NCBI GenBank assembly: GCA_965649115.1
Contig: CBFGJN010000005.1
Coordinates: 1 to 50,938 of the forward strand
DNA length: 50,938 nucleotides
From: a candidate division WOR-3 bacterium
GTDB taxonomy: Bacteria; Hydrothermota; Hydrothermia; LBFQ01; DSFT01
Reading direction: 5' to 3'
The translations under genes and the position numbers were made by a program. This document shows positions 1 to 48,334 of this stretch, piece by piece. The notes under the pieces were generated by a model, which worked only from the letters and a program-made list of their open reading frames with translations, ran no database searches and was not told the origin of the DNA. The first letter of the stretch is position 1, and each line of letters opens with the position of its first letter.

Positions 1-123
1 ATAATGAATAGTTTTTATAGTTATAGTAATTTGGCTGATTGAGGGGTTGATATGGGAGGGGATGAGTTAAAATATAGTGGGGGTATCCATAGGGAAGGTA
101 GAGGGGGAATTATTGGACAAGGC
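1..123. repeat. Degenerate remnant of the intergenic MITE-like family
   Basis: Ends in AATTATTGGACAAGGC (108-123), matching the family terminal repeat; remainder is G-rich and decayed. Confidence 0.5.
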
Positions 124-146
124 AATTATCTAAATTTTTTATCCTT

Positions 147-152
147 TAAAAT
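147..152 (+). promoter_or_regulatory. -10 box (TAAAAT) of a leaderless-type promoter for rpmA
   Basis: CTTTAAAATTTT 9 nt before the ATG at 162, no SD; the same motif precedes most operon-first genes in the window. Confidence 0.6.
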
Positions 153-161
153 TTTCGGACT

Positions 162-467
162 ATGGCAACACATAAAGGGCAAGGTTCAACTCAAAATGGA
201 AGAGATAGCAGACCTAAATATCTTGGTGTTAAAGTTGGAGATGGAGAAATTGTTAAAATTGGTAATGTTCTTGTTAGACAAAGAGGAACAAAATTTCATC
301 CTGGATATAATGTTGCAAGAGGGGGTGATGATACCCTATATGCTCTTACTAATGGAAGAGTTAAATTTGAGAGAAGGAAAGGTAAAGTTTTTGTATCAGT
401 TTATCCAATAGAAGAATTTAATTTATACTACGGAGGTAAGTATGCCAACGATAAACCAACTCGTTAG
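162..467 (+). CDS. rpmA: 50S ribosomal protein L27
   Basis: [32 protein letters not shown] signature; C-terminal extension overlaps rpsL. Confidence 0.97.
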
Positions 468-825
468 GAATCCAAGAAAACCAAAAAAGAGAAAATCAAA
501 AGCACCTGCTCTTGAAGGAAACCCACAGAAAAGAGGCGTATGTATAAGGGTTTATACGACAACTCCTAAAAAACCCAATTCTGCACTAAGAAAGGTCGCA
601 AAAGTAAGGCTTTCAAACGGAAGAGAGGTTATAGCTTATATCCCTGGTGAAGGACACAACTTACAGGAACACTCAGTTGTCTTAGTAAGAGGAGGAAGGG
701 TTAAGGACTTACCAGGTGTAAAGTATCATATAGTAAGAGGTGTTTATGATGCAGCAGGTGTTGAAAAAAGAAGAAATAGCAGAAGCAAGTATGGGACTAA
801 AAAACCTAAGGAGGAGAAGAAATGA
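442..825 (+). CDS. rpsL: 30S ribosomal protein S12
   Basis: [29 protein letters not shown]; SD GGAGG upstream. Confidence 0.99.
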
Positions 826-1289
826 GAAGAAGAAGAGCACCTGAAAGAATAATAACACCTGACCCAAAGTACAACTCAGTCTTGGTTTCCAAATTTATAA
901 ATAATTTAATGTGGGATGGGAAAAAAGAAACAGCAAGAAAAATTTTCTATAAAGCATTAGAACTAATTCAAAAGAAAACAGGTGAAGATGGTTATCAGAT
1001 ATTTCTAAAAGCTATTGAAAATGTAAAGCCAGAAATTGAAGTTAGAGCAAGAAGAGTAGGAGGAGCCACTTACCAAGTTCCAGTTGAAATAAGACCCAAA
1101 AGACAAATTTCACTTGCTATTAAATGGATTATTCAAGCTGCAAGAAGCAGATCTGAGAGAACTATGATTGAAAGATTAGCTAATGAACTAATTGATGCTT
1201 CAAAAGGAATTGGTAATGCTGTTAAAATAAGAGAAAATACTCATAAAATGGCTGAAGCAAATAGGGTTTTTGCTCATTATCGCTGGTGA
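822..1289 (+). CDS. rpsG: 30S ribosomal protein S7
   Basis: [28 protein letters not shown]. Confidence 0.99.
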
Positions 1290-2308
1290 AAGCAATTATC
1301 ATAAATAATTTTGGTGATTTAGATGTTCTTCAATTAGCAGATATTGAAGAGCCTAAAATTAGCCCAAATGAAGTTCTTGTAAAAATAAAAGCAGTTTCAA
1401 TAAACCATATTGATATTTGGATAAGGAAAGGAATAAACATAAGACCTAAATTACCACATATTCTTGGAGCAGATATTAGTGGAATTGTTATTGACAAAGG
1501 AAGTGAAGTTAAAAATGTTGAAGTTGGAGATGAAGTAGTTTTAGCACCTGCTATATCTTGTAATAATTGTTATGAATGTATAAGTGGAAATGACAATTTT
1601 TGTAAAAGCTATTCTATTCTTGGAGAACATGTTTGGGGAGGTTATAGAGAATATATAAATATAAGAAGTGAATTTGTTTTAAAGAAACCTAAAAACTTAA
1701 ATTTTATAGAAAGTGCAAGCTTTCCATTAGTATTTTTAACAGCTTATAATGCATTAATTAGAAGAGGAAATTTAAGTATAGATGAAGTAATTTTAATAAT
1801 GTCAGGAGGAAGTGGAGTAGGTTCAGCTGCTATTCAAATAGCTAAAAAACTTGCTAATGCCTATGTTATAACAACTGTTGGAAGTGATGAAAAAGTACAA
1901 AAAGCTTATGAAATTGGAGCAGATTATGTTATAAATTGGAAAAAAACTGACATTACAGAGGAAATAAAAAATAAATTTGGAAGGATAGATATGGTTTTAG
2001 ATCATACAGGAAAAATGCACTTAAATAATTTAATTAAAATTGTTAAAAATGGTGGAAGGGTTGTAAGTTATGGAGCAACGAGTGGCCATTTAGCAGAAAT
2101 TGATTTAAGACACATATTTTATAGACAAATTTCAATAATTGGTTCAACGATGGGTAGAAGAGCAGACTTAATAAAAATCATCAATTACTTTGAAAATGGC
2201 TTATTTAAACCTGTTATTTATAAAGTTTTACCAATAGAAGATGTAAAAGAAGGACATAGGATTCTTGAAAGTGGAGAAGTTTTTGGAAAGGTTGTTTTAG
2301 AAGTATGA
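1286..2308 (+). CDS. Zinc-binding MDR alcohol dehydrogenase/quinone oxidoreductase-like protein
   Basis: PHILGAD, CxxCxxC-x7-C structural zinc site, GGSGVG nucleotide-binding motif, GKVVL terminus; GTG start overlaps rpsG stop. Confidence 0.9.
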
Positions 2309-3342
2309 ATGTTATAAATATCATCTCAAAGTACTCAATTTTAAATGGCTATATAGTTCTTGAAGATGGAATATATGCTTCAATTTCTATTTACAACGAC
2401 CTTAAAACAAAAATTTCAAATATTGAAGATGAACTTATTAAAAGTGGTTATTATATGGAAATTAAAGATATTGAAGGTTCAAAAATTATTTTGAGAATTT
2501 TTGAAGCACCAAAACCACAAAAACAAAATTACCTATTACACTTAATTTTATTTATTCTAACAATAATTTCAACACTTATGGCAGGTGCAGTCCAACTTGG
2601 AGCAAATCCATTTTCATCAGAAATTTTAAAAGGAATTCCCTTTTCATTTTCTATAATGACAATTTTATTATTTCACGAAATGGGACATTATATTCTTTCA
2701 AGAAAATTTAAAGTAGATGCTACACTTCCATATTTCATACCATTTCCAAACCCTATAATAGGAACTATGGGTGCAGTAATTAGAATTAGGTCTATAATTC
2801 CAAACAAAAAATCACTTTTATATATCGGTGCAGCTGGACCTTGGCTTGGGCTGTTTGTTTCAATTATTGCTTTAATAGTAGGTTTAAAACTTTCAAAAAT
2901 TGTTCCTCATAGCTTATCAGGTGAAGGTTTTACACTTGGAGAAAGTTTATTATTTAAAATAATTGCTTATTTAGTAATTGGGGATACTCAAAATCAAATA
3001 ATTATTTTACATCCAATTGCATTTGCAGGTTGGCTTGGACTATTTGTAACAAATTTAAATTTAATTCCAATTGGTCAGCTTGATGGTGGCCATATCGCAT
3101 ATTCATTATTTGGAAAATATCAAAAGTACATTTCAATTATTACTTGGATTTTCCTAATAATTTTTGGATTTCTATATTGGAATGGATGGCTTGTTTGGGC
3201 TATCCTAACACTAATTCTTGGTTTAGATCATCCAAAGCCTCTAAATGATTTTACTGAATTATCAAAAAAAGATAAAATTTATGCAGTCTTATCTTTAATT
3301 CTTTTTATTTTAACATTTATGCCAAATCCTATAAAGGTATGA
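2305..3342 (+). CDS. Site-2 protease (M50) intramembrane metalloprotease
   Basis: HEMGH and NLIPIGQLDGGH motifs, multiple TM segments. Confidence 0.92.
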   Translation: MNVINIISKYSILNGYIVLEDGIYASISIYNDLKTKISNIEDELIKSGYYMEIKDIEGSKIILRIFEAPKPQKQNYLLHLILFILTIISTLMAGAVQLGANPFSSEILKGIPFSFSIMTILLFHEMGHYILSRKFKVDATLPYFIPFPNPIIGTMGAVIRIRSIIPNKKSLLYIGAAGPWLGLFVSIIALIVGLKLSKIVPHSLSGEGFTLGESLLFKIIAYLVIGDTQNQIIILHPIAFAGWLGLFVTNLNLIPIGQLDGGHIAYSLFGKYQKYISIITWIFLIIFGFLYWNGWLVWAILTLILGLDHPKPLNDFTELSKKDKIYAVLSLILFILTFMPNPIKV

Positions 3343-4563: not shown

Positions 4564-4836
4564 TTATTTTACAACCTCACTTACTGCCCATTTCTTAATT
4601 TTTATTGGAGTGCCTTCACTCTCTATTATAAAATAATCATCTCCTACAATTTGTATTTCACCGATTATACCAGATGTTGTAATAACTTTATCACCTTTTT
4701 TTAAACTTTTTATCATTTCTTCTTTTTTCTTTCGCTCTCTTTGTTGTGGAAGAATAAGAATTAGATAGAAAATGAGAAAAATCAGAAGGTAAAAAATTAA
4801 AAGCGAAATCCAACTACTACCTGTTTGATTTTGCAT
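4564..4836 (-). CDS. yajC: Preprotein translocase subunit YajC
   Basis: N-terminal TM, PQQR..SLKKGDKVITTSGIIG. Confidence 0.93.
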   Translation of the reverse strand: MQNQTGSSWISLLIFYLLIFLIFYLILILPQQRERKKKEEMIKSLKKGDKVITTSGIIGEIQIVGDDYFIIESEGTPIKIKKWAVSEVVK

Positions 4837-4873
4837 ACTTCAAAATTTTAAAGCATAAAGTATAAAATATAAT

Positions 4874-5145
4874 GCTTTGCCTAGTAATTCCAAAACTATT
4901 TATTTTACTATATTTAAGCCTTCGGCTTATAAATACCCGTTTAAATCTATAATTTCCTCAAAGCTTTTATAAGTTATTGATAATCAAGGATTTAACAATA
5001 ATTACTGGACAAAGCAAAAATATAATGCTGTGTCTAATAATTCTAAAATTATTTAAGCCTTCAACTTAAACTTCGCCCCCCTGTAATCCCCCAATTAAAT
5101 CAATAGTTTTCTTAAAATTTTTATAAGTCATTGGTAATCAATAAT
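4874..5145. mobile_element. MITE-like cluster: internally deleted copy 4874-5015 plus decayed second copy
   Basis: Ends GCTTTGCCTAGTAAT..ATTACTGGACAAAGC; flanks TAAAATATAAT (4863-4873) and AAAAATATAAT (5016-5026). Confidence 0.8.
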
Positions 5146-6945: not shown

Positions 6946-6988
6946 ATTGTAGTGTTTAAATTTTAAAGTGCTAGGTTCAATAATTTTA

Positions 6989-7191
6989 GCTGTGTCTAGT
7001 AATTCTGAAAATATAATTATTTCTTATTTTGCCCGCCCACCCTGAAAATAAGGCTTCGCCTTATAAATACCCATTTTTCGGCTATGGGGGGCGAAGCCCC
7101 CCATTAAACCCCCCCATAAAATCTATAATTTCCTTAAAATTTTTATAAATTGTTGATAATCAATAACTTAACACTACTTATTGGACAAAAC
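6989..7191. mobile_element. Full-length 203-bp MITE-like element
   Basis: GCTGTGTCTAGTAAT..TTATTGGACAAAAC ends; internal GGGGGCGAAGCCCCC hairpin and TTGATAATCAATAACTTA motif. Confidence 0.85.
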
Positions 7192-7230
7192 ACGCTTATA
7201 ACTTCAAGCAAATTTTTTATAAAAAACAAT

Positions 7231-8157: not shown

Positions 8158-8194
8158 AGCTTGAAAATTTTAAAGCAAGGGGTAAGTTTTTTAT

Positions 8195-8356
8195 GTTTTA
8201 TCTAAGAATTCTGAAATGTGGATTATTTCTATTCTTTGCCCACCCACCCTATATTTAAGCTTTCAGCTTATAAATACCCGTTTAAATCTATAATTTCCTC
8301 AAAGCTTTTATAAGTTATTGATAATCAAGAATTTAACAATAATTATTGGACAAATC
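8195..8356. mobile_element. Internally deleted MITE-like copy
   Basis: Right part nearly identical to the 4874-5015 copy, with the same internal deletion. Confidence 0.75.
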
Positions 8357-9718: not shown

Positions 9719-9719
9719 A

Positions 9720-22969: not shown

Positions 22970-23002
22970 AAATTTACCTCCTAATTTTAAAGTGAAAGTC
23001 AA

Positions 23003-23008
23003 ATTTTA
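23003..23008 (-). promoter_or_regulatory. Candidate -10 box of the cmr operon promoter
   Basis: GCTTTAAAATTT on the minus strand (second copy at 22984-22989), same motif as housekeeping promoters. Confidence 0.45.
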
Positions 23009-23159
23009 AAGCTTTTTTCAAACTCAAAAAACCTCTAAAATTCAATAATTTCAAGAATTAAATTAACGAAATCGTTGAAAATACTAAATTTCCAAATTTT
23101 ATTAAATTTTAAAACAAAAAGCTTTAAAATTTTAAATTTTTTATCTAATAGAATAGTTT

Positions 23160-23645
23160 TTTGTTAAGTCTTTATGACTAAAAATGGTTTTAATGGGGAG
23201 CTCTGCTCCCCCAAAGCAAAAGAGAGGGTTTTTTAAAGCCGAAGGCTTGTATTTAGGGTGGGTGGGAAAATATAATAAAATAAGGACTTTCAGAATTCCT
23301 AGACAAAATAGGACATAAATGCTTTGTCCAGTAAATAATGTTAAGTAAAAAGCCCCCCGAAGCCGAAATATGGGTATTTTTAAGCCGAAGGCTTAATATC
23401 AGGGCGAGTGGGAAAAATATAGAAATAATTATATTTTTAGAATTACTAGACAAACCAAAAATAAATTGCTTTGTCCAGTAAATAATGTTAAGTGCTTGAT
23501 AGTCAATAACTTATTAAAAATTCATTAAAATTCTTGAAATAATGGGGGGAATTTAAGGGGGGCGGAGTTAAAGCCGAAGGCTTATATTCAGGGTGGGTGG
23601 GAGAAGTATAGAAATAATTATATTTTCAGAATTACTAGACAAAAC
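23160..23645. mobile_element. Tandem cluster of three MITE-like copies (decayed copy, 23321-23456, 23468-23645)
   Basis: 11-nt junctions AGGACATAAAT (23310-23320), AAAAATAAATT (23457-23467) and AGGACATAAAA (23646-23656). Confidence 0.82.
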
Positions 23646-23682
23646 AGGACATAAAAAACATTATGCTTTAAAATTTCAAAAT

Positions 23683-24060
23683 ATGAGAAATTTTATTTTT
23701 GTTTTTTTTATATCCTGTTCATCAGTTGTTGTAAATCAACCGCCAGGTCATATCGTTGCTTCTGAAAATCACTTAATGAATGGTAAAAAACAACTTGAAA
23801 AAGGTCATTGTAAGCAAGCTATTGAACAATTTGAAAAAGCGATAGAAAAAGACCCAACTAACTTCCAAGCATATTATTGGAGAGGAATTGCTTATGGTAT
23901 GTGTGGTAATTGTAATGATGCACTATCAAGCCTTGAAATATCAAAAAAATATAAACCATCTGATATATGGGATGAAAGAATAAGTATTGCTATAAATTTA
24001 TGTTCATCAAAAAAACAAAAAAAAGATTTTAGTATAACCTTAAAATGGCTTTGGGAATAA
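23683..24060 (+). CDS. TPR-repeat lipoprotein
   Basis: True start likely MRNFIFVFFISC (lipobox-like) after TAAAAT; AIEQFEKAIEKDP..AYYWRGIAY TPR pattern; the ORF-track extension lies in the repeat. Confidence 0.75.
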   Translation: MRNFIFVFFISCSSVVVNQPPGHIVASENHLMNGKKQLEKGHCKQAIEQFEKAIEKDPTNFQAYYWRGIAYGMCGNCNDALSSLEISKKYKPSDIWDERISIAINLCSSKKQKKDFSITLKWLWE

Positions 24061-24383
24061 ACGGAATTATCGGTTTATCATTAATAATTATGGATTTATC
24101 TATTAAAATCACTTTAAGTTTTTCAGGCATAAAAACATATCCCGATTTTGGACTCTTTTATGTAGGAATAATAAATGTTTTTTTCGATTTATTGAAAAAT
24201 AATCTTGATAATTTAACACGAAATTTAGCTTCATTTTTTTTAATTATTTCTCTACTTTATCCAATATCAAATATCATTGAAAGTTTAACGAATTTAAGCT
24301 TTTTGTCCAAGCTTGAAACAGGAGGTCTTTGGAGTTTATGTATAGCAATAATAGTAATAGTGCTTTCAAAGTTGAGGATTTAA
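24045..24383 (+). CDS. Small multi-pass membrane protein of unknown function
   Basis: Hydrophobic ORF overlapping both neighbours. Confidence 0.55.
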   Translation: MALGINGIIGLSLIIMDLSIKITLSFSGIKTYPDFGLFYVGIINVFFDLLKNNLDNLTRNLASFFLIISLLYPISNIIESLTNLSFLSKLETGGLWSLCIAIIVIVLSKLRI

Positions 24384-24553
24384 GAAAAAAAGCAAAATTT
24401 TTAATAATGTATAGAGGGATGAAAGAAGTAGAAGAATTATTGAAGAAAAATTACCTTGAAAAAATAGAAAATATGAATGAAAATGAAATTTTAGAACTTA
24501 TAAATTTTCTTGAAAAAGATGATTGGACAATACTTAAAGAGATTCTGAAATGA
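24329..24553 (+). CDS. sdhE: SdhE/Sdh5-family FAD assembly factor
   Basis: YRGMKE (RGxxE) motif in a short helical protein; start uncertain. Confidence 0.65.
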   Translation: MEFMYSNNSNSAFKVEDLRKKAKFLIMYRGMKEVEELLKKNYLEKIENMNENEILELINFLEKDDWTILKEILK

Positions 24554-25539
24554 CAAGCACAATTAAAATTTTTGAATATGAGGGAATAAAAATTTCTGAA
24601 ATTCCATTAGAGCTTTTAAATAAACTTTCAAGAATAAATAAAATCAAAATTTTAGGTAAAAAGCTTATTCCCGTTGGAATATCAGGATATTTAAAATTCA
24701 AAGACTATGAAATTATTATTCTTCCAAGACTAAAAATTGAAGACTATTTTTTTATTCTTAAAGAACTTGGAATTTATGAATTTTCAGAAGAAAAAATTGA
24801 ACTTGAAAATGTTTTATATAACATTGTGAAATTTTATGGTGAAAATTTACTTGAAACTTCAAGGAAAATAGGTCCTCCATTAGAATATACAAGCGAAAAA
24901 ATTGAAGAATCAGTAGTAAAAGGTAAAATAAATATAAGTGAAAGTATAAATCCTCCAAAGTTAAAACAAACAAGATGGATTATGGGCTTTGGTAAAATTT
25001 CAGGTGTTCTTCTTGGTGCTATGATTCATGCTTATAGAGTTTTTAAGACAGAAGAATTATTCTATCTCCTATCAAAAATTAAAATTATCTTTTCAGAAGC
25101 CAAACCTATTTTTAAACCTCAATATCAACTAAATCCACCAGAAGAATATGCAAATTTATTTAGATTAGCTAATTTTATTCTTGATAGTAGATTTATGGTT
25201 TTGCCAAATGGACTATTTATAAACAATTTCAGCCTATTTGAACAATTCGTATATAAAATGCTTTATAAAAATTATTTTACATTATATCAACAAGAAATAA
25301 AAGTTGATAAAATTACTTTGAAACCCGACTTTATAATAAATGGAATTCCAATTGATGCTAAATATAAATTTTCTATTGAAAATTCTGATATTTATCAAGC
25401 ATTCACTTATGGTTCTGTTATTTCAAAAAATTTATCTATCCTAATTTATCCTTACCTTGAATATGAAATTAATATCCAAAATGTAAAAATAAAAGCAATA
25501 CCAATCTTCAAAAATTTAGATAATTTTTCAATATTTTAG
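24550..25539 (+). CDS. McrC-like PD-(D/E)xK restriction component
   Basis: LFEQFV..LKPDF..IDAKYK..DIYQAFTY pattern. Confidence 0.7.
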   Translation: MTSTIKIFEYEGIKISEIPLELLNKLSRINKIKILGKKLIPVGISGYLKFKDYEIIILPRLKIEDYFFILKELGIYEFSEEKIELENVLYNIVKFYGENLLETSRKIGPPLEYTSEKIEESVVKGKINISESINPPKLKQTRWIMGFGKISGVLLGAMIHAYRVFKTEELFYLLSKIKIIFSEAKPIFKPQYQLNPPEEYANLFRLANFILDSRFMVLPNGLFINNFSLFEQFVYKMLYKNYFTLYQQEIKVDKITLKPDFIINGIPIDAKYKFSIENSDIYQAFTYGSVISKNLSILIYPYLEYEINIQNVKIKAIPIFKNLDNFSIF

Positions 25540-25544
25540 TTCTA

Positions 25545-26095
25545 AAACCTTTTTTTGGAATTTTTGGACACAGCATCAATATGGGCATTTTAAAGACGCA
25601 GCCTTTATTTTAGAGTGGGCGGGCAAAATATAGTAAAATAAATAATTTCAGAATTTTTAGACACAGCAAATTTAATCTGCTTTGTCCAGTAAATAATGTT
25701 AAGTGCTTGATAGTCAATAACTTATTAAAAATTCATTAAAATTCTTGAAATAATGGGGGGAATTTAAGGGGGGCGAAGCCCCCCAAAGCATAAGAATGGG
25801 CATTTTAAAGCCGAAGGCTTATATTCAGGGTGGGTGGGCAAAATAAGAAATAATCTATATTTCCGAATTACTAGACAAAACATCAGAATTTTGCTTTGTC
25901 CAATAAATAATGTTAAGTGATTGATAGTCAATAACTTATAAAATTTTTAAAGAAATTATTGATTTTATGGGGGATTATAGGGGGGGCTTTGCCCCCCATA
26001 ACCGAAAAATGGGTATTTTTAAGCCGAAGGCTTAATATCAGGGTGGGTGGGAAAAATATAGAAAAATAAATAATTTCAGAATTATTAGACACAGC
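25545..26095. mobile_element. Tandem MITE-like cluster: decayed copy plus two 203-bp copies (25679-25881, 25893-26095)
   Basis: Junction AAATTTAATCT (25668-25678); ATCAGAATTTT on both sides of the last copy (25882-25892, 26096-26106). Confidence 0.88.
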
Positions 26096-26130
26096 ATCAG
26101 AATTTTTACTTTATGCTTTAAACTTTCCTT

Positions 26131-26310
26131 ATGCATCTTGGAGCCCAAGAGCTTATCATAATTCTTGTAATTATTCTAATCCTCTTTGGAGCAGATAAAT
26201 TACCAAAACTTGCAAAAGGACTTGGTGAAGCTGTAAAAGAATTTAGAAAATCTTCAAGAGATGATAACGGTAATTCAGAGAGTAAAGAAAGCAAGGATAA
26301 TAAATCTTAA
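26131..26310 (+). CDS. tatA: Twin-arginine translocase subunit TatA (not in ORF track)
   Basis: [40 protein letters not shown]..; 59 aa; overlaps dtd. Confidence 0.93.
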
Positions 26311-26689
26311 AGAAACTGAAATTCAAAGAGGATTAGTTGTTCTTGTAGCATTTGAAAATAACGATATTGAAGAAAAATTCCAAAAATTTATAAATAAAAT
26401 TTTAAATTTGAGAATTTTTGAAGATGAGAATAATAAAATTAATTTTTCAGTAAAAGATATAAATGGAGAAATTCTATTAGTTCCTAACTTTACACTTGCT
26501 GGTTATTTGAAAGGAAATAGACCATCATTTGATAATGCTATGTCAATTGAAAAAGCAAGAGAATTTTTTGAAAAATTAAAACAAGAATTTTTAAATTCAT
26601 ATCCAAAAATAAAATTTGGAGAATTCCAAACTCATATGGAATTAGAACTCATAAACGATGGTCCTTTTACAATTATTTATAGCTTATAA
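26261..26689 (+). CDS. dtd: D-aminoacyl-tRNA deacylase
   Basis: [24 protein letters not shown]. Confidence 0.93.
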
Positions 26690-27371
26690 CAATTGCTTTG
26701 TTCATTTTTCAAAAAACAATCAAATAAAATTAAATTTTTTTAGAAGCTTTGAATTATCCGATACTACATATGATTTTATTTTTATATCTTGTTTAAATGG
26801 TAAAGATACATTTATTATCAAAAAAGAAAATGAAATTTTAAATTATTTGAAGTTTTGTATATATTCTATTGGAAACTTTCAAAAACCCCTTTTTGAAATT
26901 AAATTCTATAAAAACTTCATTAATGCTGATGAAAAAATAGAAATCAACAGAATAGCTGATATGCTATTTTACAAAAACTATTCTTATTTTTTTCATTACT
27001 ATGATAGAAAGAAAGTTGAATTTTATAGAAGCATTTTAAGATATAAAATTGCTAAAATTTACTTTGAAAAAAATAATTTCTCAAAGGCTTTAAGAATTTT
27101 AAGTGAATTGGAAAAAAACGAAGATTTTAGAATTAAGTTCATCTCAATAAATCTTAAAAATGAAATTTATAAAAAACTAAATTATAAAACTATAAATGTT
27201 CATATTTCAGTAAATTTAGATGATGGAATTTACATAAAAGGTTTAGATACATCAATAGTCTTTGAAAACTTGAAAATTTTTAAAAAACCTTTAATTTGTG
27301 AGCTTGATTTTCCCGAAATATATATTATTAAGGATAAAAAATTGATTTATTGGTTTTCTCCAATACTTTAA
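26658..27371 (+). CDS. Hypothetical protein with a possible TPR-like helix
   Basis: 237-aa ORF overlapping dtd; no family recognised. Confidence 0.5.
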   Translation: MVLLQLFIAYNNCFVHFSKNNQIKLNFFRSFELSDTTYDFIFISCLNGKDTFIIKKENEILNYLKFCIYSIGNFQKPLFEIKFYKNFINADEKIEINRIADMLFYKNYSYFFHYYDRKKVEFYRSILRYKIAKIYFEKNNFSKALRILSELEKNEDFRIKFISINLKNEIYKKLNYKTINVHISVNLDDGIYIKGLDTSIVFENLKIFKKPLICELDFPEIYIIKDKKLIYWFSPIL

Positions 27372-27375
27372 GTTT

Positions 27376-27892
27376 GTTTAAATTCCACGTTGTTTAAATT
27401 CCACTATGTTCAGATGAAACAAAGAAGTTCTTACAATAGAAATGAATATCATCAATATGTTTAAATTCCACTATGTTCAGATAAAACTCGCAAATCACGG
27501 AACCAAAAGGGTCAACATAGAAATCAAAATCTGTTTAAATTCCACTATGTTCAGATAAAACACATAGTGGAATGAGAATAAAAAGGGGGTGGAAAATAGT
27601 TTAAATTCCACTATGTTCAGATAAAACCAAAGAAGAAAAAAGCTCAGATATAAGCACTGAAATAATGTTTAAATTCCACTATGTTCAGATAAAACTCATC
27701 ACGAACGGATTAACCCCCGGTATGTTTATACCGTTTAAATTCCACTATGTTCAGATAAAACGCTTTATTATTTGTCACGAGTTAGCACACTATTACCGTT
27801 TAAATTCCACTATGTTCAGATAAAACGTGGTAAAAATTCTCCTCGATACAATTGATGACACAAGTTTAAATTCCACTATGTTCAGATAAAAC
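27376..27892 (-). CRISPR. CRISPR array: 8 repeats of 29 bp and 7 spacers (36-45 nt)
   Basis: Plus-strand repeat GTTTAAATTCCACTATGTTCAGATAAAAC at 27392, 27459, 27533, 27599, 27667, 27733, 27798 and 27864; variant repeat and partial copy at the left (trailer) end; minus-strand repeat ends in ATTTAAAC, a typical 8-nt handle. Confidence 0.97.
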
Positions 27893-28400
27893 CCCCCCTT
27901 TTAAGCCCCTAAACCTATTTCAACAAGGCATTATGCCTTGTAAAGAAAGATATAAATCAAACCAAGTCCATACCTAACTAAATTTAAATTTTCCCTAACG
28001 AAAATGTATATAACAAAATGCTGTCCTAAAATTTTAAAGCATACCTCAAACAAATGTCAATTGCCGCAAACCTCCACCTTGTTATTAGTCAAATTAAAAT
28101 GATAAATTATTAAGTAATTGATAATCAATAATTTAAATAAATTAACTAATTTTAATTTGTCAAATAAAATTCTTCAAAATTTTAAGTTTGTGACTCTCCC
28201 TTCTGATAAGCTTTTGAAATAAAAAATTTTATAAATTGCTGAAAATCAATAACTTAAAATATATTTGAAATCCTCATAAATTCTAAATTTTAATTTGTCT
28301 GATTAAAATTCAAGTTTCCAAAAGTGAAAAGTTTTAAAAAAGAGGGGGGTTTGTGACAAGGTTTAAATTATTGATTATCAATAAGTTATTTAATTTATGC
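27893..28400 (-). promoter_or_regulatory. CRISPR leader with -10 box at 28031-28036, inverted repeat and IHF-like sites
   Basis: Minus-strand TATGCTTTAAAAT points into the array; TTGCCGCAAACCTCC (28061-28075) and GGGGGGTTTGTGACAA (28344-28359) form an imperfect IR; WATCAANNNNTTR matches between them. Confidence 0.65.
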
Positions 28401-30116: not shown

Positions 30117-30191
30117 GCTTTGTCCAGTAAATAATGTTAAGTAAAAAGCCCCCCATAGCCAAAATATGGGTATTTATAAGCCGAAGGCTTA
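30117..30191. repeat. Partial MITE-like copy between convergent genes
   Basis: GCTTTGTCCAGTAAATAATGTTAAGTAAAAAGCCCCCC.., same deletion variant as the 23321 copy. Confidence 0.7.
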
Positions 30192-30204
30192 ATTAGCCGA
30201 AAGC

Positions 30205-34769: not shown

Positions 34770-34807
34770 AGTTTTAAAATTTTAAAGTTGAGTGTTCAAA
34801 TTGGTCT

Positions 34808-35010
34808 GTTTTGTCTAGTAATTCTGGAACTATTTATTTTATTATATTTCTCCCACCCACCCTATAATTAAGCCTTCGGCTTATAAATGCCCATTTTTAG
34901 GCTTTGGGGGGCAAAGCCCCCCATTAGACCCCCCATTAAATCTATAACTTCTTTAAAATTTTTATAAACTATTGATAATCAAGGACTTATCATTATTTAT
35001 TGGACAAAGC
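34808..35010. mobile_element. Full-length 203-bp MITE-like element with target duplication
   Basis: Flanked by (C)AAATTGGTCT (34797-34807) and (A)AAATTGGTCT (35011-35021). Confidence 0.88.
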
Positions 35011-35038
35011 AAAATTGGTCTGTTATAAAATTTACATT

Positions 35039-38653: not shown

Positions 38654-39159
38654 AATGCTTTTAAGAAGATATTATAAGTTTCTTCATCATATAGACAAAC
38701 TCTTATTTTTTCTATAGTTGTTTTCCCATCAAATTCATTTATGAAGTCCTTTATTGCTTTTAAAATAATTGAACTTGCTCTTTCTTTTGGAAAACCAAAT
38801 ATCCCTGTGCTTATTGCAGGAATACTAATACTTTTTAGTTTTTTTTCATGAGCTAATAATAATGAACTTCTTACAGCACTATATAAAATTTCATCTTCAT
38901 TATATTTTCCACCTTTCCAAATAGGTCCGACCGCGTGAATAACGAACTTTGCTTTTAAATTTCCACCACTTGTTATCACCGCTTTACCAGGAGGACAATA
39001 ACCTATTTTATTTGATTCTTCCTGAATAATTTGACCACCTTTTTTTACAATAGCAAGTGCTAGTCCTCCTCCATGAATTAGATTTTCATTAGCAGCATTT
39101 ACAATAGCATCAACTTCTTCTTCTGTAATATCACCTTTTACAATTTCAAGTTTAATCAT
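38650..39159 (-). CDS. Macro domain protein (O-acetyl-ADP-ribose deacetylase-like)
   Basis: GDIT..DAIVNAAN..GGG, IHAVGP, PAISTGIFGFP. Confidence 0.93.
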   Translation of the reverse strand: MIKLEIVKGDITEEEVDAIVNAANENLIHGGGLALAIVKKGGQIIQEESNKIGYCPPGKAVITSGGNLKAKFVIHAVGPIWKGGKYNEDEILYSAVRSSLLLAHEKKLKSISIPAISTGIFGFPKERASSIILKAIKDFINEFDGKTTIEKIRVCLYDEETYNIFLKAL

Positions 39160-39185
39160 TTTGAAAAGTTTAAAGGAAATTAGCA

Positions 39186-39270
39186 AAAGGCTTATTTTCA
39201 GGGTGGGTAAACCGAAAAATGGGCATTTTAAAGCCGAAGGCTTGAATACAGGGTGGGTGGGAAAAATAAG
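39186..39270. repeat. Fragments of the MITE-like family
   Basis: AAGCCGAAGGCTT and CAGGGTGGGTGGGAAAAATA blocks. Confidence 0.7.
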
Positions 39271-39302
39271 GTAAATTAATTGAACTTTAAAATTTCATAT
39301 TT

Positions 39303-39488
39303 ATGGAATGGATACAAGCTTTAACAATTATAGCAAGTCTTTTTGTATTTATTGGCATTGTTGCTAATTTATTGAATAAACGCATAGATGACATTAACAG
39401 AAGACTTGATAAATTAGAAGAGGATATTAGAGAAATAAGACAAATTCTTTATAAAATTTTTGAAACTCCTAAAAAGGAAGGTAATTAA
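39303..39488 (+). CDS. Small protein with N-terminal TM and coiled coil
   Basis: 61 aa; TM followed by LNKRIDDINRRLDKLEEDIREI heptads; own TAAAAT box. Confidence 0.7.
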   Translation: MEWIQALTIIASLFVFIGIVANLLNKRIDDINRRLDKLEEDIREIRQILYKIFETPKKEGN

Positions 39489-39534
39489 TTGCTTGAAATA
39501 GTGGGAAGATTAGCTTCCAATAGCAAAAGATAAG

Positions 39535-40087
39535 GAATTTTAAAGGCGAAGCCTTAAATATGGGTTGGGTGGGCAAAATATAGAAAAATATATATTTTCA
39601 GAATTATTTAGACACAGCAAAGCAAAGTTGCTTTGTCCAATAAATAATGATAAGTTATTGATAATCAAGCTTTGCTCCCCATAGCCGAAAAAAGGGTATT
39701 TAAAAGCAATAATTGAATGCTTTGTCTAATAAATAGTGCTAAGTGATTGACTATCAATGACTTATAAAGGTTCATTAAAATTATTGATTTATCGGGGGTT
39801 TTAAGGGGGGCAAAGCCCCCCGAAGCCGAAATATGGGTATTTTAAAGCCAAAGGCTTAAATTTAGGGTGGGTGGGGAAAATATAGAAAAATAAATAATTT
39901 TAGAATTTTTAGACACAGCAAATTTAATCTGCTTTGTCCAGTAAATAATGTTAAGTGTTTGATAGTCAATAACTTATGAAAAATTCATTAAAATTCTTGA
40001 AATAATGGGGGGAATTTAAGGGGGGCGAAGCCCCCCAAAGCATAAGAATGGGTATTTTAAAGCCGAAGGCTTATTATCAAATACAGC
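39535..40087. mobile_element. Tandem MITE-like cluster (includes 39719-39919 and 39931-40087)
   Basis: 11-nt junctions; AAATTTAATCT at 39920-39930 and 40088-40098. Confidence 0.85.
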
Positions 40088-40122
40088 AAATTTAATCTGA
40101 ACTTTACTTTAAAATTTTCAAT

Positions 40123-43741: not shown

Positions 43742-43744
43742 GTT

Positions 43745-44203: not shown

Positions 44204-44212
44204 AGGATATAA

Positions 44213-44241
44213 TTAACGAAAAAAACTATAAAAAAGTTTCA
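44213..44241 (-). promoter_or_regulatory. ECF sigma promoter TGAAAC-N17-CGTTAA
   Basis: Matches the SigW/SigM-like consensus; -10 lies 9 nt before the anti-sigma ATG. Confidence 0.7.
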
Positions 44242-44907
44242 AGTTGATTTTGAAATAATTAAAACAAATTCTCCCTTCTTTTTTATTTTTTCTTTGACAT
44301 CTAATAAATTTCCATAAATGTACTCTTCAAAAGCTTTTGTCATTTCTCTTGCTATAAAAACTTTTCTATTTCCAAAAATTTCATAAATTTCATTTAATAT
44401 CTCTTCTATTTTATGAACTGAAATATATATCACTATTGAGCCTTCAAAGTCTCTATATTTTTCAAGTTCTTTAATTCTTTTATTTTTCTTTTTTGGTAAA
44501 AATCCTAAAAATAGAAATTTATCTGTTTCAAGACCACTAACACTTAAAGCACTTATTAAAGCAGATGGACCTGGAATTGGAATAACATCTATATTATTTT
44601 CTCTACAAAGTTTTACTAATTTATAACCTGGATCTGATATTAAAGGTGTCCCTGCATCTGAAATTAATGCGATATTTTTACCTTCCTTTAATAAATTAAT
44701 AACTTCTTTTGCCCTTTTTTCTTCATTTCCTTCAAAATAAGATAATAATTTTTTATTTTTTATATTGTAATAATTTAGCAAAATTTTTGCCCTCCTTGTA
44801 TCTTCACAAAGAATAATATCAACACTTTTTAAAATATCTATCGCTCTTAATGTAATATCTTTTAAATTACCAATTGGTGTTGCTACAACAAATAGTTTCC
44901 CTATCAT
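44239..44907 (-). CDS. rsmI: 16S rRNA C1402 2'-O-methyltransferase
   Basis: VATPIGNLKDITLRA, CEDTR, SDAGTPLISDPG, AREMTK. Confidence 0.97.
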   Translation of the reverse strand: MIGKLFVVATPIGNLKDITLRAIDILKSVDIILCEDTRRAKILLNYYNIKNKKLLSYFEGNEEKRAKEVINLLKEGKNIALISDAGTPLISDPGYKLVKLCRENNIDVIPIPGPSALISALSVSGLETDKFLFLGFLPKKKNKRIKELEKYRDFEGSIVIYISVHKIEEILNEIYEIFGNRKVFIAREMTKAFEEYIYGNLLDVKEKIKKKGEFVLIISKST

Positions 44908-46178
44908 CTTGGAACAATAAATGTCTTATATGAATTATTCTTCTTTAAAACATAAATTCCCTTTTTTAACTGTGAAATTTTTCTTTTTCCTATGAATTTA
45001 CCTGTAATATCATAAATTTCGTAAATCTCCTCATTTGAAACTAATAGTTCATTTTTAGAAGTCGTCTGACAAATATAACTAATTGAAACATTAATATCCT
45101 TTATGTTTAAACTAATATCAGAGAAAGGAATTGAAAATGATTGAAGAGAAATTGGAAAATTCTCAATTGTAATATCTAAATAACTATCATTTAAATAAAA
45201 TAGTTGGCTTTGAAAAATTGGACAAGATAAATTCTTATAGAAAATGTAATCATTTGTGCTATTAAAAATAACATAGTTTTTGGCAAATTTTAAATTATTT
45301 GTCCATATATTAGCAGTTTTAAGAATTGGAAAAAATTCATCCAAAACATAATAAAATACATTATTGTTATAAATGCCAAAAATCTCAATTGAATTATCAT
45401 AATTTAAAAACTTTGGAATTAAGTTTGATAAACTTTTAATTGATAAAATTTTCCAATTTTTTAAAATTAATAAAAATTTATCAGAAAGAATTATTAAACT
45501 ATCATTTCTTTTTAGAAATCCATAAATTGGAAAATGAGAATTTGTAAAAATTTTTTTTCCTTCAATTAGGTTAAAAAGTGTATCAAACTTAAAAACAAAA
45601 GAAATTCTCTTTGAATCATAATAATCTCCAAAAACATAAATGTAATCGCCTTCTAAATAAAAATTTTTTAAACTTGTAGAGTAAAAGAATAAATATGCTA
45701 ATTTCATAAACTTTGGCACTCCACTTGTATCAATAATAAACAAAAATGGTCTTGTTGAGCCTGTTGGATTTGCATTTCCAATAATGTAAATTTTATCATT
45801 TTCAATTGTAATAGAACTCGGTTCTTCGTAATTAACTATTGAATAAAATTTTGATTTTATAATGTTTCCATTTGTATCTACACTTATAAAAAGGATATTA
45901 TTTCCTTCATTTTGAGTAGTAATTGTTCCAATTATATAAATTTTTCCATCTTTATAAACAGCATCAGTAAATTGAATATAACTATTAGAATAAATTGATT
46001 TTGAAAAGATAATATTGCCACTTTTTGAAAGTTTGATTAAAGCAATTTCTCCAATTGAGTTTTCATTTAGTCTATTGCCAATGAGAATTATAGAATTTTC
46101 ACTGATTTCTAAAACTTTTGATAAGCTGATATTACTTTCATTTATTTTTATAAAGAATCCAAGTAAAATTTCAAGCAT
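44904..46178 (-). CDS. Secreted beta-propeller-like protein with T9SS-like C-terminal domain
   Basis: Repeated KIYIIG and D..GNII blades; terminal IYDITGK..LKKGIY. Confidence 0.55.
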   Translation of the reverse strand: MLEILLGFFIKINESNISLSKVLEISENSIILIGNRLNENSIGEIALIKLSKSGNIIFSKSIYSNSYIQFTDAVYKDGKIYIIGTITTQNEGNNILFISVDTNGNIIKSKFYSIVNYEEPSSITIENDKIYIIGNANPTGSTRPFLFIIDTSGVPKFMKLAYLFFYSTSLKNFYLEGDYIYVFGDYYDSKRISFVFKFDTLFNLIEGKKIFTNSHFPIYGFLKRNDSLIILSDKFLLILKNWKILSIKSLSNLIPKFLNYDNSIEIFGIYNNNVFYYVLDEFFPILKTANIWTNNLKFAKNYVIFNSTNDYIFYKNLSCPIFQSQLFYLNDSYLDITIENFPISLQSFSIPFSDISLNIKDINVSISYICQTTSKNELLVSNEEIYEIYDITGKFIGKRKISQLKKGIYVLKKNNSYKTFIVPR

Positions 46179-47674
46179 TTTATAATTTCCTCCTCTTTGT
46201 AAGCTGTAATAACTTTTCTTGAAATTTCAGATAAAACCTCTTTATTTAATTTTTCAATAATTTCCTTTGCTCTATTTAAGTATGAAATAGGAATTGAAAA
46301 AATTCTTATACCAAATGAAATTAGTGCAATTAAACCAATGTCATTACTTGCCATATCTCCACAAACACTAAAAGGCTTTGGTTTTGACTTTGAAAACGAA
46401 TAATAAATTAATCTAAATATGCTTGGATGAAATTGTTGAAAACTAATATCATTCCTATTTATAGCAAGTGTATATTGAGTTAAATCATTTGTTCCAAGAC
46501 TAAAGAAATTGACTAATTTTTTAAATCTATCAGTAATTAATGCTGATGAAGGAGTTTCAATCATTATACCAACTTCAATATCTTCTAAAAGTTTTTTTAT
46601 TTCCATAACTTCCTCAACTGATGAAACCATAGGTATTAAAACTTTTATATTTTTTAATTTATTTGCTAATTTTATTGCACTAATTTGTTTGTTTAAAAGT
46701 TCTCTATTGTAATAAAGTAAATATCTTATACCTCTTATATTCGGATTTTCTGCTGAAATTGGAACCTTATCACCTCCCAAATCAAATAATCTAATTGTTA
46801 AAACTTTTGGATAAACTTTATAACTCATTTCTTCATAAATATCTTTCTGTTCATTTTTGCTTATTATACCATTTAAATAAAGATACTCCGTTCTAAATAA
46901 TCCAATATCAAAATTTTTAATTTTTTCAACTTCTTCAGGGAAATCTATATTAATTTGAATTTTTATTGGAATTCCATCTTTTGTTTTAAAGTAATCACTT
47001 TCAAATAAAATATATGTTGGTTTTTCAAAAATCTCAATTTTCTCATTTGTAAATTCAACTTCATCATTATTAATGATAGCATATTTATAATTTTTTGCTA
47101 TATTAACAACATTTTCAATACCAATAATTGTTGGAATGCCTTTATCTTTTAAAATAAGAATAGGATGAGAAGTTAGGGCATTCGTTTCAAGAACAACGCC
47201 CTTTATATTGCTCTTAATTGCTTTCAAACTTTGTCTAATTGTCAAATTTTTTGCAACTAATATCGTCCCTTCTTTAAAGTCTTCTTTATCTAACTTTCCT
47301 GCTATGAAATCCAAAAGTTCATTTTTAAAAAATTTTAGTTCTGTTGAAATATGTTTATAATGTTCATCTTCTAAATTGAATTTATTTGAGATTTCATCAA
47401 TTGCCAAGCCAATTGATTTTAATAAATTTTCATTTTTATTTTTTACCATTTGAAGAAAACTTTTACTTCTTAATATACTTACATAAAAATTGACATACTC
47501 CTTATATCTTTCATCCATACCATTAATTTCTTCAAGCAAATAATTTATATAACTTTCAAAAAGATTCTCAATATCTTTAATTTCAAAATCATTTGTGAAA
47601 TCTTCTGCTTTATCTAATATGAAAATCTCTCCAAAAACCCTTGAACTTACAACAACAATTCCTTTAAGTTTCAT
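46148..47674 (-). CDS. ptsI: PEP-protein phosphotransferase (PTS enzyme I)-like
   Basis: TSH phospho-His, IGLFRTEYL, RGIR, GIMIETPS, SLGTNDLTQY, VCGD; start moved to ATG 47674. Confidence 0.88.
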   Translation of the reverse strand: MKLKGIVVVSSRVFGEIFILDKAEDFTNDFEIKDIENLFESYINYLLEEINGMDERYKEYVNFYVSILRSKSFLQMVKNKNENLLKSIGLAIDEISNKFNLEDEHYKHISTELKFFKNELLDFIAGKLDKEDFKEGTILVAKNLTIRQSLKAIKSNIKGVVLETNALTSHPILILKDKGIPTIIGIENVVNIAKNYKYAIINNDEVEFTNEKIEIFEKPTYILFESDYFKTKDGIPIKIQINIDFPEEVEKIKNFDIGLFRTEYLYLNGIISKNEQKDIYEEMSYKVYPKVLTIRLFDLGGDKVPISAENPNIRGIRYLLYYNRELLNKQISAIKLANKLKNIKVLIPMVSSVEEVMEIKKLLEDIEVGIMIETPSSALITDRFKKLVNFFSLGTNDLTQYTLAINRNDISFQQFHPSIFRLIYYSFSKSKPKPFSVCGDMASNDIGLIALISFGIRIFSIPISYLNRAKEIIEKLNKEVLSEISRKVITAYKEEEIIKCLKFYLDSL

Positions 47675-47713
47675 ATAAAATAAAATTTTAAAGGATATAA
47701 AAGAAATTTTTGT

Positions 47714-48334
47714 GCCTTGTCTAGTAATTCTGAAAATATGATTATTTCTTATTTTTCCCACCCACCCAAAAATAAGCCTTCGGCTTTAAATACCCATATT
47801 TCGGCATTGGGGGGCTATGCCCCCCTTAAAAACCCCCATTAAATCAATAGTTTCAGAGAATTTTTGATAAGTTATTGATAATCAATTATTTAACATTATT
47901 TACTGGACAAAGCAAAATTTTTGTGCTGTGTCTAAAAATTCTGGAATTATTTATTTTTCAAAAGCCTTCGGCTTATAAATACCCATTTTTAGGCTTTGGG
48001 GGGCTTTGCCCCCCATTAAATCTTTATAAACTATTGATAATCAAGGACTTATCATTATTTATTGGACAAAGCAAAATTTTTGTGTTTTGTCTAGTAATTC
48101 TAAAAATATAATTATTTCTATATTTTTCCCACCCGCCCTATAATTGAGCTTTCGGCTCTACTTACCCATATAAATGATTTTCTTAAAATTTCATAAGTTA
48201 TTGATTATCAATTATTTAACACCATTTACTAGACAAAGCAAAATTTTTGTGCATATTGTGCCTTTTTTTGCCTTGGGAACTTTGCCCCCTTTAAATCAAT
48301 AAATTTATTAAAAAATTATTTTATTGGACAAAGC
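47714..48334. mobile_element. Stack of four MITE-like copies separated by the same 11-mer
   Basis: GAAATTTTTGT (47703-47713); AAAATTTTTGT at 47914-47924, 48073-48083 and 48240-48250. Confidence 0.9.

Follow-up and report, generated by a model that had tools for sequence, protein, structure and literature searches.

The window (i.e., the whole stretch of 50,938 nucleotides analysed here) raises the following question: why does one end of a short repeated element lie at nearly the same distance from the promoters of so many genes? A sequence-only reading of this DNA had placed an element end (..GC) 23 nt from the hexamer TAAAAT or TAAACT at rpmA, yajC, lepA, the TPR lipoprotein gene, tatA, trm112 and ptsI, and 22 nt from it at argF and nuoD. 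All these distances are found as given, and the gene names at the nine promoter sites are confirmed by Pfam. The terminal motif proposed there has 35 matches in the window at ≤2 mismatches (1.04 expected; maximum 4 in 100 shuffles). The statement that the element fills nearly every intergenic gap is roughly correct for the window but not for the genome: among the 617 ORF-proximal promoters with a strict box, 230 are preceded by an end of the element at one of the two distances (14-17 or 22-23 nt), whereas none is found within 45 nt for 353. The features of the window are listed in Table 1.

Table 1. Element copies, promoter boxes and repeated flank or spacer sequences in the window.
Feature	Position	Strand	Remarks
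Truncated right end of a longer, probably autonomous element	1..124	+	cut by the contig edge; three stop codons near the edge
Right-end inverted repeat of the longer element, ..TTGGACAAGGCA	finishing at 124	+	identical end at 16 contig ends
rpmA promoter box CTTTAAAATTT	144..154	+	TAAAAT 147-152, ATG at 162
MITE copy with internal deletion, right end toward the yajC box	4873..5016	-	TAAAAT 4845-4850 (minus strand)
9-mer TTATATTTT on both sides of the yajC copy	4864-4872 and 5017-5025
Second copy at yajC, partial, head to tail with the first	5026..5144	-	11-nt spacer between the two
Full MITE upstream of lepA	6988..7191	-	atypical: no duplication, right end followed by T
MITE copy upstream of argF	8194..8356	-	22-nt gap
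Head-to-tail array upstream of the TPR lipoprotein gene	23186..23646	+	three copies; box 23666-23676
AGGACATAAA in the TPR lipoprotein array	at 23310, recurring at 23646
Array upstream of tatA	25560..26096	+	three copies; TAAACT at 26119
tatA array spacer ATCAGAATTTT	25882-25892, recurring 26096-26106
Partial MITE remnant	30117..30194	+
Single full MITE upstream of trm112	34807..35011	-
Perfect 9-bp duplication GACCAATTT around the trm112 MITE	34798-34806 and 35012-35020		minus-strand reading
Array upstream of nuoD	39152..40088	+	about five full and partial copies; box 40107-40117
nuoD array spacer AAATTTAATCT	at 39920 and 40088
Array upstream of ptsI	47713..48334	-	TAAAAT 47685-47690 (minus strand)
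9-mer CAAAAATTT at ptsI			flank and all three spacers, i.e., four occurrences
More copies and ends, right edge of the window	50510..50908

Identity and termini of the element

In the 1.85-Mb Hydrothermia-like MAG of this hot-spring bacterium (G000), the ~203-bp element gives 728 nhmmer hits in 466 arrays, i.e., 99.6 kb or 5.4% of the MAG; both ends are present in 227 of the hits. The element has terminal inverted repeats and is short, non-coding and multicopy, as MITEs are. The right end first described is followed by A in 426/446 cases in G000, and the left end is preceded by T in 99/108. These two bases are part of the element and the true termini are therefore TG...CA, one base longer on each side than previously read. 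The 23-nt gaps stand as such; once the terminal A is counted, 22 (or 21) nt separate the hexamer from the last base of the element.

The target-site duplication is 9 bp long: the per-position match between the two flanks is 0.96-1.00 over exactly 9 positions (+2..+10; 108 copies). Among 215 full copies, 107 have ≥9 of 11 flanking nucleotides in common between their two flanks; the maximum in shifted controls is 8. Since the duplications adjoin the inverted repeats, the promoter box is outside the mobile unit. The element is thus a real, mobile MITE. It is non-autonomous, as already proposed, and the mobile unit is bounded by the inverted repeats; a longer element, its likely partner, is represented at contig edges.

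Nature and age of the promoter box

The box, cTTTAAAATTT, is the standard promoter box of the lineage and a -10 element. It lies 3-17 nt ahead of the start of 617 ORFs in G000 and is found ahead of tRNA genes and Shine-Dalgarno-leadered genes, besides leaderless genes. Start codons and tRNA 5' ends suggest that the transcript starts 6-7 nt past the hexamer. If so, the MITE is inserted at about -35, as the sequence-only reading had supposed.

In the related genomes G001-G004, tatA, trm112 and the lipoprotein gene have kept the box and lack the element. The box, being present at orthologous genes without the element, existed before it. Element-free orthologous sites of this kind are at odds with a terminal motif that would be a fixed ancestral operator. 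Such an immobile regulatory repeat would fit the high conservation of the terminal motif next to promoters. It is already contradicted, and its probability is close to nil, given the duplications, the variable copy number per site, the empty orthologous sites, the restriction of the element, within the genus, to two or three genomes out of five (G000 and G002, with a single hit in G003) and the similarity of the G000 copies to one another (up to 96%).

lepA is an exception. G000 has both element and box there, and a close relative has neither, argF and lepA being abutted; this is the opposite of what was expected. It would suit a mobile cassette carrying its own promoter, the spacing being internal to the mobile unit. 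This explanation is scarcely credible: the 9-bp duplications leave the box outside, the gap sequences vary from site to site, and the box is kept at orthologous genes in element-free genomes.

When lineages are compared at ~90% coding identity, the 9 nt adjoining the element have an identity of 0.32-0.34 (chance level) and the proximal 12-13 nt of 0.57-0.64; no letter-perfect empty site was seen. At the tatA locus, positions 25543-26110 are replaced by 40 letters in one contig of run X6.

Offset and orientation

Intact outward right ends were counted once per array (n=311). The distance to the TAAAAT in the box is 22-23 nt for 177 of these, 14-17 nt for 57, 21 or 24 nt for 7 and another value for 9; for 61, a box is missing within 60 nt. 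The range 25-60 nt is almost empty. Just 3 of 132 intact outward left ends are at 22-23 nt. For ends found by pattern, the values are 158/499 (right) versus 3/320 (left), and it is indeed the same end that faces the promoter, as first noticed. There are thus a main register at 22-23 nt and a second, minor register at 14-17 nt.

Two peaks are also obtained when the distance to the first strict box (TTTAAAMT) is scanned genome-wide for the 446 right ends with a 70-nt flank. The main peak comprises 115 ends at 23 nt, 38 at 22, 4 at 24 and 2 at 21; the second one comprises 26 ends at 15 nt, 12 at 16, 7 at 14 and 5 at 17. No strict box is found for 218 ends, and 98 have the left end of the next element at 10-11 nt. 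The gaps do differ in sequence, with ~0.1 bit per position at -22..-10.

The sharp peak at 22-23 nt recurs in the sister genome G002 and in metagenome contigs. Among 67 matches to an end-plus-box pattern in G002, 27 are at 23 nt, 5 at 22, 5 at 24, 12 at 15 and 5 at 16 (reversed-pattern control: 0 matches); the pattern has no match in G001, G003 and G004. Metagenome contigs give 55 ends at 23 nt, 24 at 22, 21 at 15 and 9 at 16. Both registers are thus common to the three datasets, which are kin and hence non-independent replicates. The MITE obeys a fixed offset and an orientation rule, the right end being toward the promoter.

This pattern could be due to selection: insertion would be random or weakly biased, and right ends would be kept at a helpful or harmless spacing (e.g., that of an UP-like A/T tract or of a binding site). 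The genome is compact (83% in ATG-ORFs of at least 100 aa), the sequence adjoining the repeat on the inner side of the right end is rich in A/T, and constraint could be the reason why the copy nearest the promoter is the best preserved. On the contrary, the peak is 1-2 nt wide and 25-60 nt is almost empty despite a median of 130 nt of upstream free space at 22 clean single insertions, i.e., room elsewhere. Two discrete registers are hard to get from a single functional spacing, and the right end has no -35-like hexamer at a workable distance, since TAGACA/TGGACA would be separated from the hexamer by 28 nt, or by 20 nt in the minor register. Moreover, the same bonds are used by later copies, and a long transposase-type element follows the same rule (see below). 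Selection is thus unlikely, and we infer that targeting makes the offset pattern.

Arrays and repeated insertion

An 11-nt spacer is found at 265 of 290 element junctions. For 78 of the 177 copies within arrays, 8-9 of 9 positions agree between the preceding spacer and the 9 nt that follow the copy (shuffled pairs: 25/3540). Among 64 arrays whose two nearest copies both have an intact right end, the promoter-proximal copy scores higher than the next one in 52 and lower in 12; an intact left end is found for 60 of the former and 27 of the latter. Insertion recurs at one site and gives head-to-tail arrays with identical 9-bp spacers. The other 99 in-array copies have no matching duplication; together with the 61 right ends without box, this implies that other routes (composite units, recombination) must also operate.

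Arrays raise another explanation, in which the anchor is a resident element end or a look-alike: the box, often TGCTTT like the left end, would act as a pseudo-end. The layout of the 15-nt register (right end, 11 nt, GCTTTAAAAT) is that of an array junction (right end, 11 nt, GCTTTGTCC). In the 15-nt sites, the frequencies of T at -5 and of G at -4 are 0.74 and 0.56, respectively, and 24 of the 61 arrays without box also hold several copies. However, G at -4 is missing in 44% of the 15-nt sites, so a pseudo-end is not required, and the major register is 8 nt away from GCTTT. Furthermore, a resident element that could act as a guide is lacking in 107 of the 184 arrays at 21-24 nt, which consist of one copy, and arrays are head to tail with the youngest copy on the promoter side. 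A resident end or a look-alike is thus very unlikely to be the anchor.

The longer, probable partner element and its predicted transposase

A longer element is represented at contig edges by 16 right ends, including positions 1-124 of the window, and 6 left ends. The sequence-only reading, which noted no transposase in the window, overlooked that the window opens with the right end of a likely autonomous partner. Among the 16 right ends, 10 are at 23 nt from the box, 1 at 22 and 1 at 39; 1 has no box and 3 adjoin another element at 11 nt. The longer element thus obeys the rule of the MITE (11/16 at 22-23 nt). Its left end comprises an upstream region finishing in a ribosome-binding site and an ATG, and its right end comprises stop codons; this layout fits a single-ORF insertion sequence. 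The longer element is probably the autonomous partner of the MITE. Its interior is absent from the MAG contigs (the smallest being of 2807 bp) and was not found in relatives or in metagenome contigs, and no match to PF00665 or PF01609 was found in G000 or in four genomes of the same genus.

The inverted repeat matches that of IS903B at 14/18 positions (18-bp repeat of the pKPN3 copy, L146:14486-15542), and passages of PMC13618097 and PMC9769513 give a 9-bp duplication for IS903B. Judged by its ends and its duplication length only, the MITE family is most likely mobilised by a DDE transposase belonging to the IS903 group of the IS5 family. Elements of this group are about 1 kb long and encode a transposase of the DDE_Tnp_1 type (PF01609) of about 300 aa.

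Proposed mechanism

The best reading, which we consider quite probable, is a site- and orientation-specific insertion of the MITE anchored on the promoter. Two outcomes had been named beforehand as refuting it, the lack of a genome-wide peak and a terminal motif that would be a fixed operator, and neither was obtained. The atypical lepA copy, the chance-level identity of the adjoining 9 nt between lineages and the lack of any transposase match count against it. The transposase encoded by the longer element would mobilise the MITEs, which share its ends, and the transposition machinery would pick its target by reference to the -10 box cTTTAAAATTT, read either directly or through bound sigma or RNA polymerase. 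A 9-bp staggered cut would be made 14-22 nt upstream of the TAAAAT hexamer (8 bp closer in the minor register), the right end would always be placed toward the promoter and the element would finish at about -35. Box, spacer and gene would be left intact, and everything farther upstream would be pushed away. Later hits on that promoter would fall between the copy already there and the box, at the bonds used before. Repeated hits would give head-to-tail arrays with identical 9-bp spacers, the oldest copies being the farthest from the promoter.

In a more specific version, which we regard as doubtful, the transposase would read no DNA and would be tethered to the RNA polymerase holoenzyme or to sigma on the -10 box. 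Integration would then take place at the upstream edge of the polymerase complex, i.e., at about -35 or, in the minor register, about -27; the two registers would be two states or contacts of the bound polymerase.

Significance

Target choice by bacterial insertion sequences is mostly thought to be loose. The strict cases known have as targets single sites (e.g., attTn7) or special sequences (e.g., dif, REP, tRNA genes, terminators). Promoter anchoring would make the MITE family a bacterial example of promoter-targeted transposition: an IS5-family element of ordinary appearance seems to land by the general promoter of the cell, at hundreds of sites per genome, with nucleotide precision and in one orientation. 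It would explain how a very compact, largely leaderless genome holds 5% of mobile DNA without broken genes or promoters. The system would let one ask how a promoter or the transcription machinery positions a DDE transposase, and its transposase could serve to put DNA at a set distance upstream of promoters. As by-products, the order of insertions is recorded in the arrays, and the promoter of an uncultured phylum-level lineage is defined by the offset pattern.

Comparison with known systems

IS903 prefers a loose palindromic target, and no report of a promoter anchor or of a strict orientation rule was found for it in the literature. The MITE family resembles IS903/IS903B by its 9-bp duplication and its terminal repeat (alike at 14/18) and differs from IS903 by its first base (T, not G).

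Tn7 uses one site per genome, duplicates 5 bp and has dedicated TnsABCD proteins. On the contrary, the MITE family is at hundreds of sites with a 9-bp duplication, and no Tns-type genes were seen. The likeness to Tn7/TnsD is one of behaviour only: at attTn7, whose use by Tn7 is described in part of PMC10969869, a recognised sequence also imposes a fixed offset and one orientation, and the neighbouring gene is left intact. Members of the IS1202 family are inserted at dif/pdif with a single orientation and a constant spacing of 5 bp to the site that XerC binds, according to PMC10132070. The MITE differs from them in family, duplication length and target (a promoter versus a recombination site).

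Correia elements have their own promoters and duplicate TA; here the duplication is of 9 bp, and the promoter is that of the host, outside the element and at a fixed distance. These elements of Neisseria and other promoter-associated bacterial MITEs are described in PMC10969869 as short, abundant, mostly upstream of genes and affecting transcription.

The landing strategy of the MITE family is similar to that of Ty3 of yeast and TRE5-A of Dictyostelium, to which it is related neither in sequence nor in chemistry. Both are eukaryotic retroelements guided by Pol III factors. They integrate with a fixed position and orientation beside the place where the transcription machinery lands, a safe-harbour strategy in compact genomes. 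If the transposase were tethered to the polymerase, Ty3 and TRE5-A would have an equivalent among bacteria in the MITE family.

Genome setting and properties of the element

The window spans contig C5 in its entirety. The assembly under study (1,848,020 bases in 99 contigs, 27.6% G+C) encodes a LepA with 97% identity to that of a 'Candidatus Hydrothermia bacterium' MAG and only 56% to the next best relative; the genome thus belongs to an uncultured lineage of hot springs whose close relatives are few. The comparison set consisted of G001-G004, four congeneric genomes.

A profile built from one copy of the ~203-bp miniature element (MITE) matched 728 stretches of the assembly, with both ends present in 227. 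The genome contains 466 arrays, which together occupy 99,590 bases. The terminal motif, described as recurrent in the sequence-only reading, is found 35 times in the window at ≤2 mismatches (1.04 expected). The right end as first delimited is followed by A in 426 of 446 copies, and the left end is preceded by T in 99 of 108; both bases are part of the element, thus the true termini are TG...CA.

In 107 of the 215 full copies that have flanks, no fewer than 9 of 11 flanking bases agree between the two sides (shifted controls: maximum 8), and a position-by-position comparison gives a target-site duplication of exactly 9 bp. At trm112, a perfect GACCAATTT lies on either side of the element; at yajC, tatA and nuoD the 9-mer of the site is likewise repeated, AGGACATAAA is repeated on either side of the lipoprotein array, and CAAAAATTT is present four times in the ptsI array. 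According to passages of PMC13618097 and PMC9769513, IS903B is a member of the IS5 family with a 9-bp duplication. The 18-bp repeat of the IS903B copy of plasmid pKPN3 agrees with the left repeat of the element at 14 of 18 positions. By this match and the 9-bp duplication, the element is placed in the IS903 group, of which it is most likely a derivative.

The copies contain short G+C hairpins and G runs, on the sense strand of the downstream gene; the G runs may be quadruplex-forming tracts. Three palindromes next to a CRISPR array are, flanks included, similar to the MITE's inner left portion (..AAGTGATTGATAGTCAATAACTTAT..) and may be either copy remnants or a shared protein-binding site.

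Coordinates of the features discussed in the window and in related loci
Feature	Location	Remarks
Right end of the long element	window 1-124	
Region with the atypical lepA copy	window 6946-7230	no duplication; box 23 nt away
argF-lepA in a close relative	L001:960-1010	genes 14 nt apart; neither element nor box/promoter
Parts aligned with a contig of sequencing run X6	window 23624-25542 and 26111-27364	contig of 3310 letters; likeness threshold 90
Partial copy, spacer AAATTTAATCT, full copy	window 25668-25881 and 39920-40078	same unit at both places
Recurrence of spacer AAATTTAATCT	window 40088-40098	next to the nuoD box
G runs inside a copy (example)	window 25754-25850	GGGGGG twice, then GGGTGGGTGGG
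CRISPR array	window 27385-27892	~8 repeats of 29 nt; Rfam CRISPR-DR43, seven matches at gathering score
Three TTGATAATCAA-like palindromes	window 28100-28400	
Segment between family left and right ends	L216:224-1115	892 bp; 125-aa ORF of unknown kind

Fixed offset and orientation

The sequence-only reading had placed the element end 22-23 nt from the TAAAAT/TAAACT hexamer at nine sites of the window; the hexamer is part of the promoter box cTTTAAAATTT. Coordinates and gaps are correct at all nine (23 nt at seven, 22 nt at two), and the gene names are borne out by Pfam: L27, YajC, LepA, ornithine carbamoyltransferase, a TPR protein, TatA, Trm112, the 49-kDa complex I subunit and a PEP-utilising enzyme.

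Over the whole genome, the count was made per array on intact right ends facing outwards with enough flank (n=311), a box being called at a position-weight score ≥8 under a model built from unoccupied promoters. The peak at 22-23 nt on which the sequence-only reading depended is present, with 177 of the 311 ends; 57 more have a box at 14-17 nt (the minor register), 7 at 21 or 24 nt and 9 elsewhere, and 61 have none. Intact left ends facing outwards number 132; a box lies no more than 60 nt away from 28 of them, at evenly spread distances, with 3 at 22-23 nt. Positions −22 to −10 of the gap carry almost no information, and over the 12 nt adjoining the hexamer the weak consensus of the promoter itself is visible. 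Box-to-ATG distances vary (6 to 10 nt or more), thus it is the box, not the start codon, that serves as anchor.

Kin of the genome, which are not independent samples, show both registers again: in the sister genome G002, 27 of 67 pattern matches at 23 nt, 5 at 22, 5 at 24, 12 at 15 and 5 at 16 (tallied from match coordinates; reversed-pattern control: 0); in 99 metagenome stretches, 55 at 23 nt, 24 at 22, 9 at 24, 21 at 15 and 9 at 16; a further 209 ends have no box and 61 are followed by another element. It must be noted that some metagenome orthologs (L166, L210, L195 and L198) have a left end turned towards the box, a mere 5-10 nt from it, which may be a rare third arrangement, of opposite orientation.

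The minor register lies 8 bp closer to the box than the major one. Its layout is that of array junctions, and the box there often starts with TGCTTT, like the left end, but G is found at −4 in only 56% of minor-register sites. A microhomology deletion was considered as origin of the 15-nt register and rejected: (i) the TG at −5/−4 is missing in many of its sites; (ii) G002 and the metagenomes show the 15-nt register as well.

The promoter box and its age

The TTTAAAMT 8-mer occurs 3107 times in the genome, and an ORF of at least 60 aa starts 3-17 nt past the hexamer at 617 boxes, most commonly at 7 nt. At 5 of the 30 occupied boxes without such an ORF, a tRNA gene starts 9-15 nt after the hexamer, thus the box serves stable-RNA genes too. 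The tRNA genes seen at occupied boxes are Met (twice), Val, Gly, Thr and Pro (contigs C51, C63, C82, C6 and C19). Many other ORF-less occupied boxes lie ahead of a leader with a Shine-Dalgarno sequence, a short ORF (for instance tatA or trm112) or a likely RNA gene.

In the tatA, trm112 and lipoprotein orthologs of G001-G004, GCTTTAAAATTT is found at unchanged ATG distance with no element upstream. The trm112 orthologs L105 (G004), L106 (G003) and L107 (G001) have two divergent leaderless genes ~35 nt apart, and in 2-3 of the relatives' genomes the trm112 box overlaps its divergent twin, as the near-palindrome AAAATTTTAAAGCTTTAAAATTTT; evidently, no sequence upstream of the box is required for the promoter. 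G001, G003 and G004 have zero matches to the pattern "element end, 8-36 nt, box". Occupancy was compared for 82 element-bearing promoters with an ortholog in the extracted loci: 26 orthologs are occupied and 20 empty at 90-97% identity, 29 and 20 at 80-90%, and 0 and 21 below 80%. In the contig of run X6, 40 letters of its own replace 568 window bases with the three-copy tatA array. Judged by these comparisons, the box is the host's promoter and predates the element.

The empty orthologous sites expected by the sequence-only reading were thus recovered in part: boxes without element exist in relatives, but no letter-perfect empty site was obtained among those available. Between lineages, likeness in the 9 nt adjoining the element does not exceed chance. 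We attribute this to saturation of A/T-rich DNA free of constraint: the available relatives have diverged so far that intergenic DNA is close to saturated, hence no exact empty site is seen.

Targeting versus selection

Promoter-anchored targeted insertion is considered probable, and the initial interpretation is supported as far as the sequence reaches. Four observations favour targeting rather than selection. First, the offset peak is 1-2 bases wide, with almost nothing past 24 nt, although free upstream space at 22 clean single insertions has a median of 130 nt and ranges from 0 to >500. Second, later insertions occur at the same bonds: junctions between elements have 11-nt spacers in 265 of 290 cases, and the spacer preceding an in-array copy equals the 9 nt following that copy in 78 of 177 (25 of 3540 shuffled pairs). 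Third, promoters shared between related lineages bear copies of a different subtype, sometimes in the other register.

Fourth, the promoter-proximal copy is the most intact: it has the higher score in 52 of the 64 arrays in which both nearest copies keep the right end, and the left end is intact in 60 proximal copies vs. 27 next copies. Under targeting, each newcomer would land between the last copy and the box, so that the proximal copy would be the most intact; constraint on the proximal copy could yield the same greater intactness. At the right end, no −35-like hexamer is found at usable spacing. A terminator or insulator role was also considered and rejected: window 23000-26300 has no terminator-like hairpin, and folding of one copy gives a z-score of −1.63.

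Several observations do not fit targeted insertion. The 61 intact right ends without box are one; another is that more than half of the in-array copies have no matching duplication. Some of these copies appear to travel, or to be duplicated, in one piece as multi-copy composites, as judged from the unit found at two places of the window and from the recurrence of its spacer. The lepA copy, which has no duplication, is a further misfit: compared with the argF-lepA locus of the close relative, it is the single site at which the box may have come with the element or disappeared from the relative. The minor register and the chance-level likeness between lineages of the 9 nt adjoining the element also fit poorly.

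The long element and the transposase search

One identical right end is found at 16 contig ends, including the first 124 bases of the window; three stop codons precede it, at the contig edge. The left end of this long element is found at 6 contig ends, and its 124 bases end with a ribosome-binding site and an ATG exactly at the edge. Since the smallest contig of the MAG has 2807 bases, an element of ~1 kb would drop out as a separate repeat contig. Ten of the 16 right ends lie at 23 nt from a box and 1 at 22 nt, thus the long element obeys the same offset rule as the MITEs; 3 others abut another element at 11 nt, 1 lies at 39 nt and 1 has no box. The long element is the likely autonomous partner of the MITEs.

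The transposase flanked by the same terminal repeats, for which the sequence-only reading had called, was recovered neither from the genome nor from relatives or metagenome contigs. The genome has no match to rve or DDE_Tnp_1, and the four same-genus genomes have none to DDE_Tnp_1; matches to this family in other genera were rejected as source transposase, their ends being unrelated. The two 124-nt ends gave only the shared repeat in G001-G005, and an exact 23-mer from the left interior is absent from the metagenome contigs. In the 99 metagenome stretches, found with the left-end pattern, end pairs with a spacing of 600-2500 bp bracket host genes or a 125-aa ORF but no transposase, and MITE sequence follows the left-end variant of the long element there. 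The segment of L216 may be a cargo-carrying or composite derivative.

Comparison with known systems

In its behaviour, the element resembles Tn7 at attTn7, as well as Ty3 and TRE5-A of eukaryotes. It also resembles the dif-hunting IS1202 family, as presented in the abstract of PMC10132070. The abstracts searched, together with passages of the MITE review PMC10969869, describe no bacterial MITE or IS that is anchored at a set distance from a general promoter. We rate the chemistry of the element as ordinary and its target rule as unusual.
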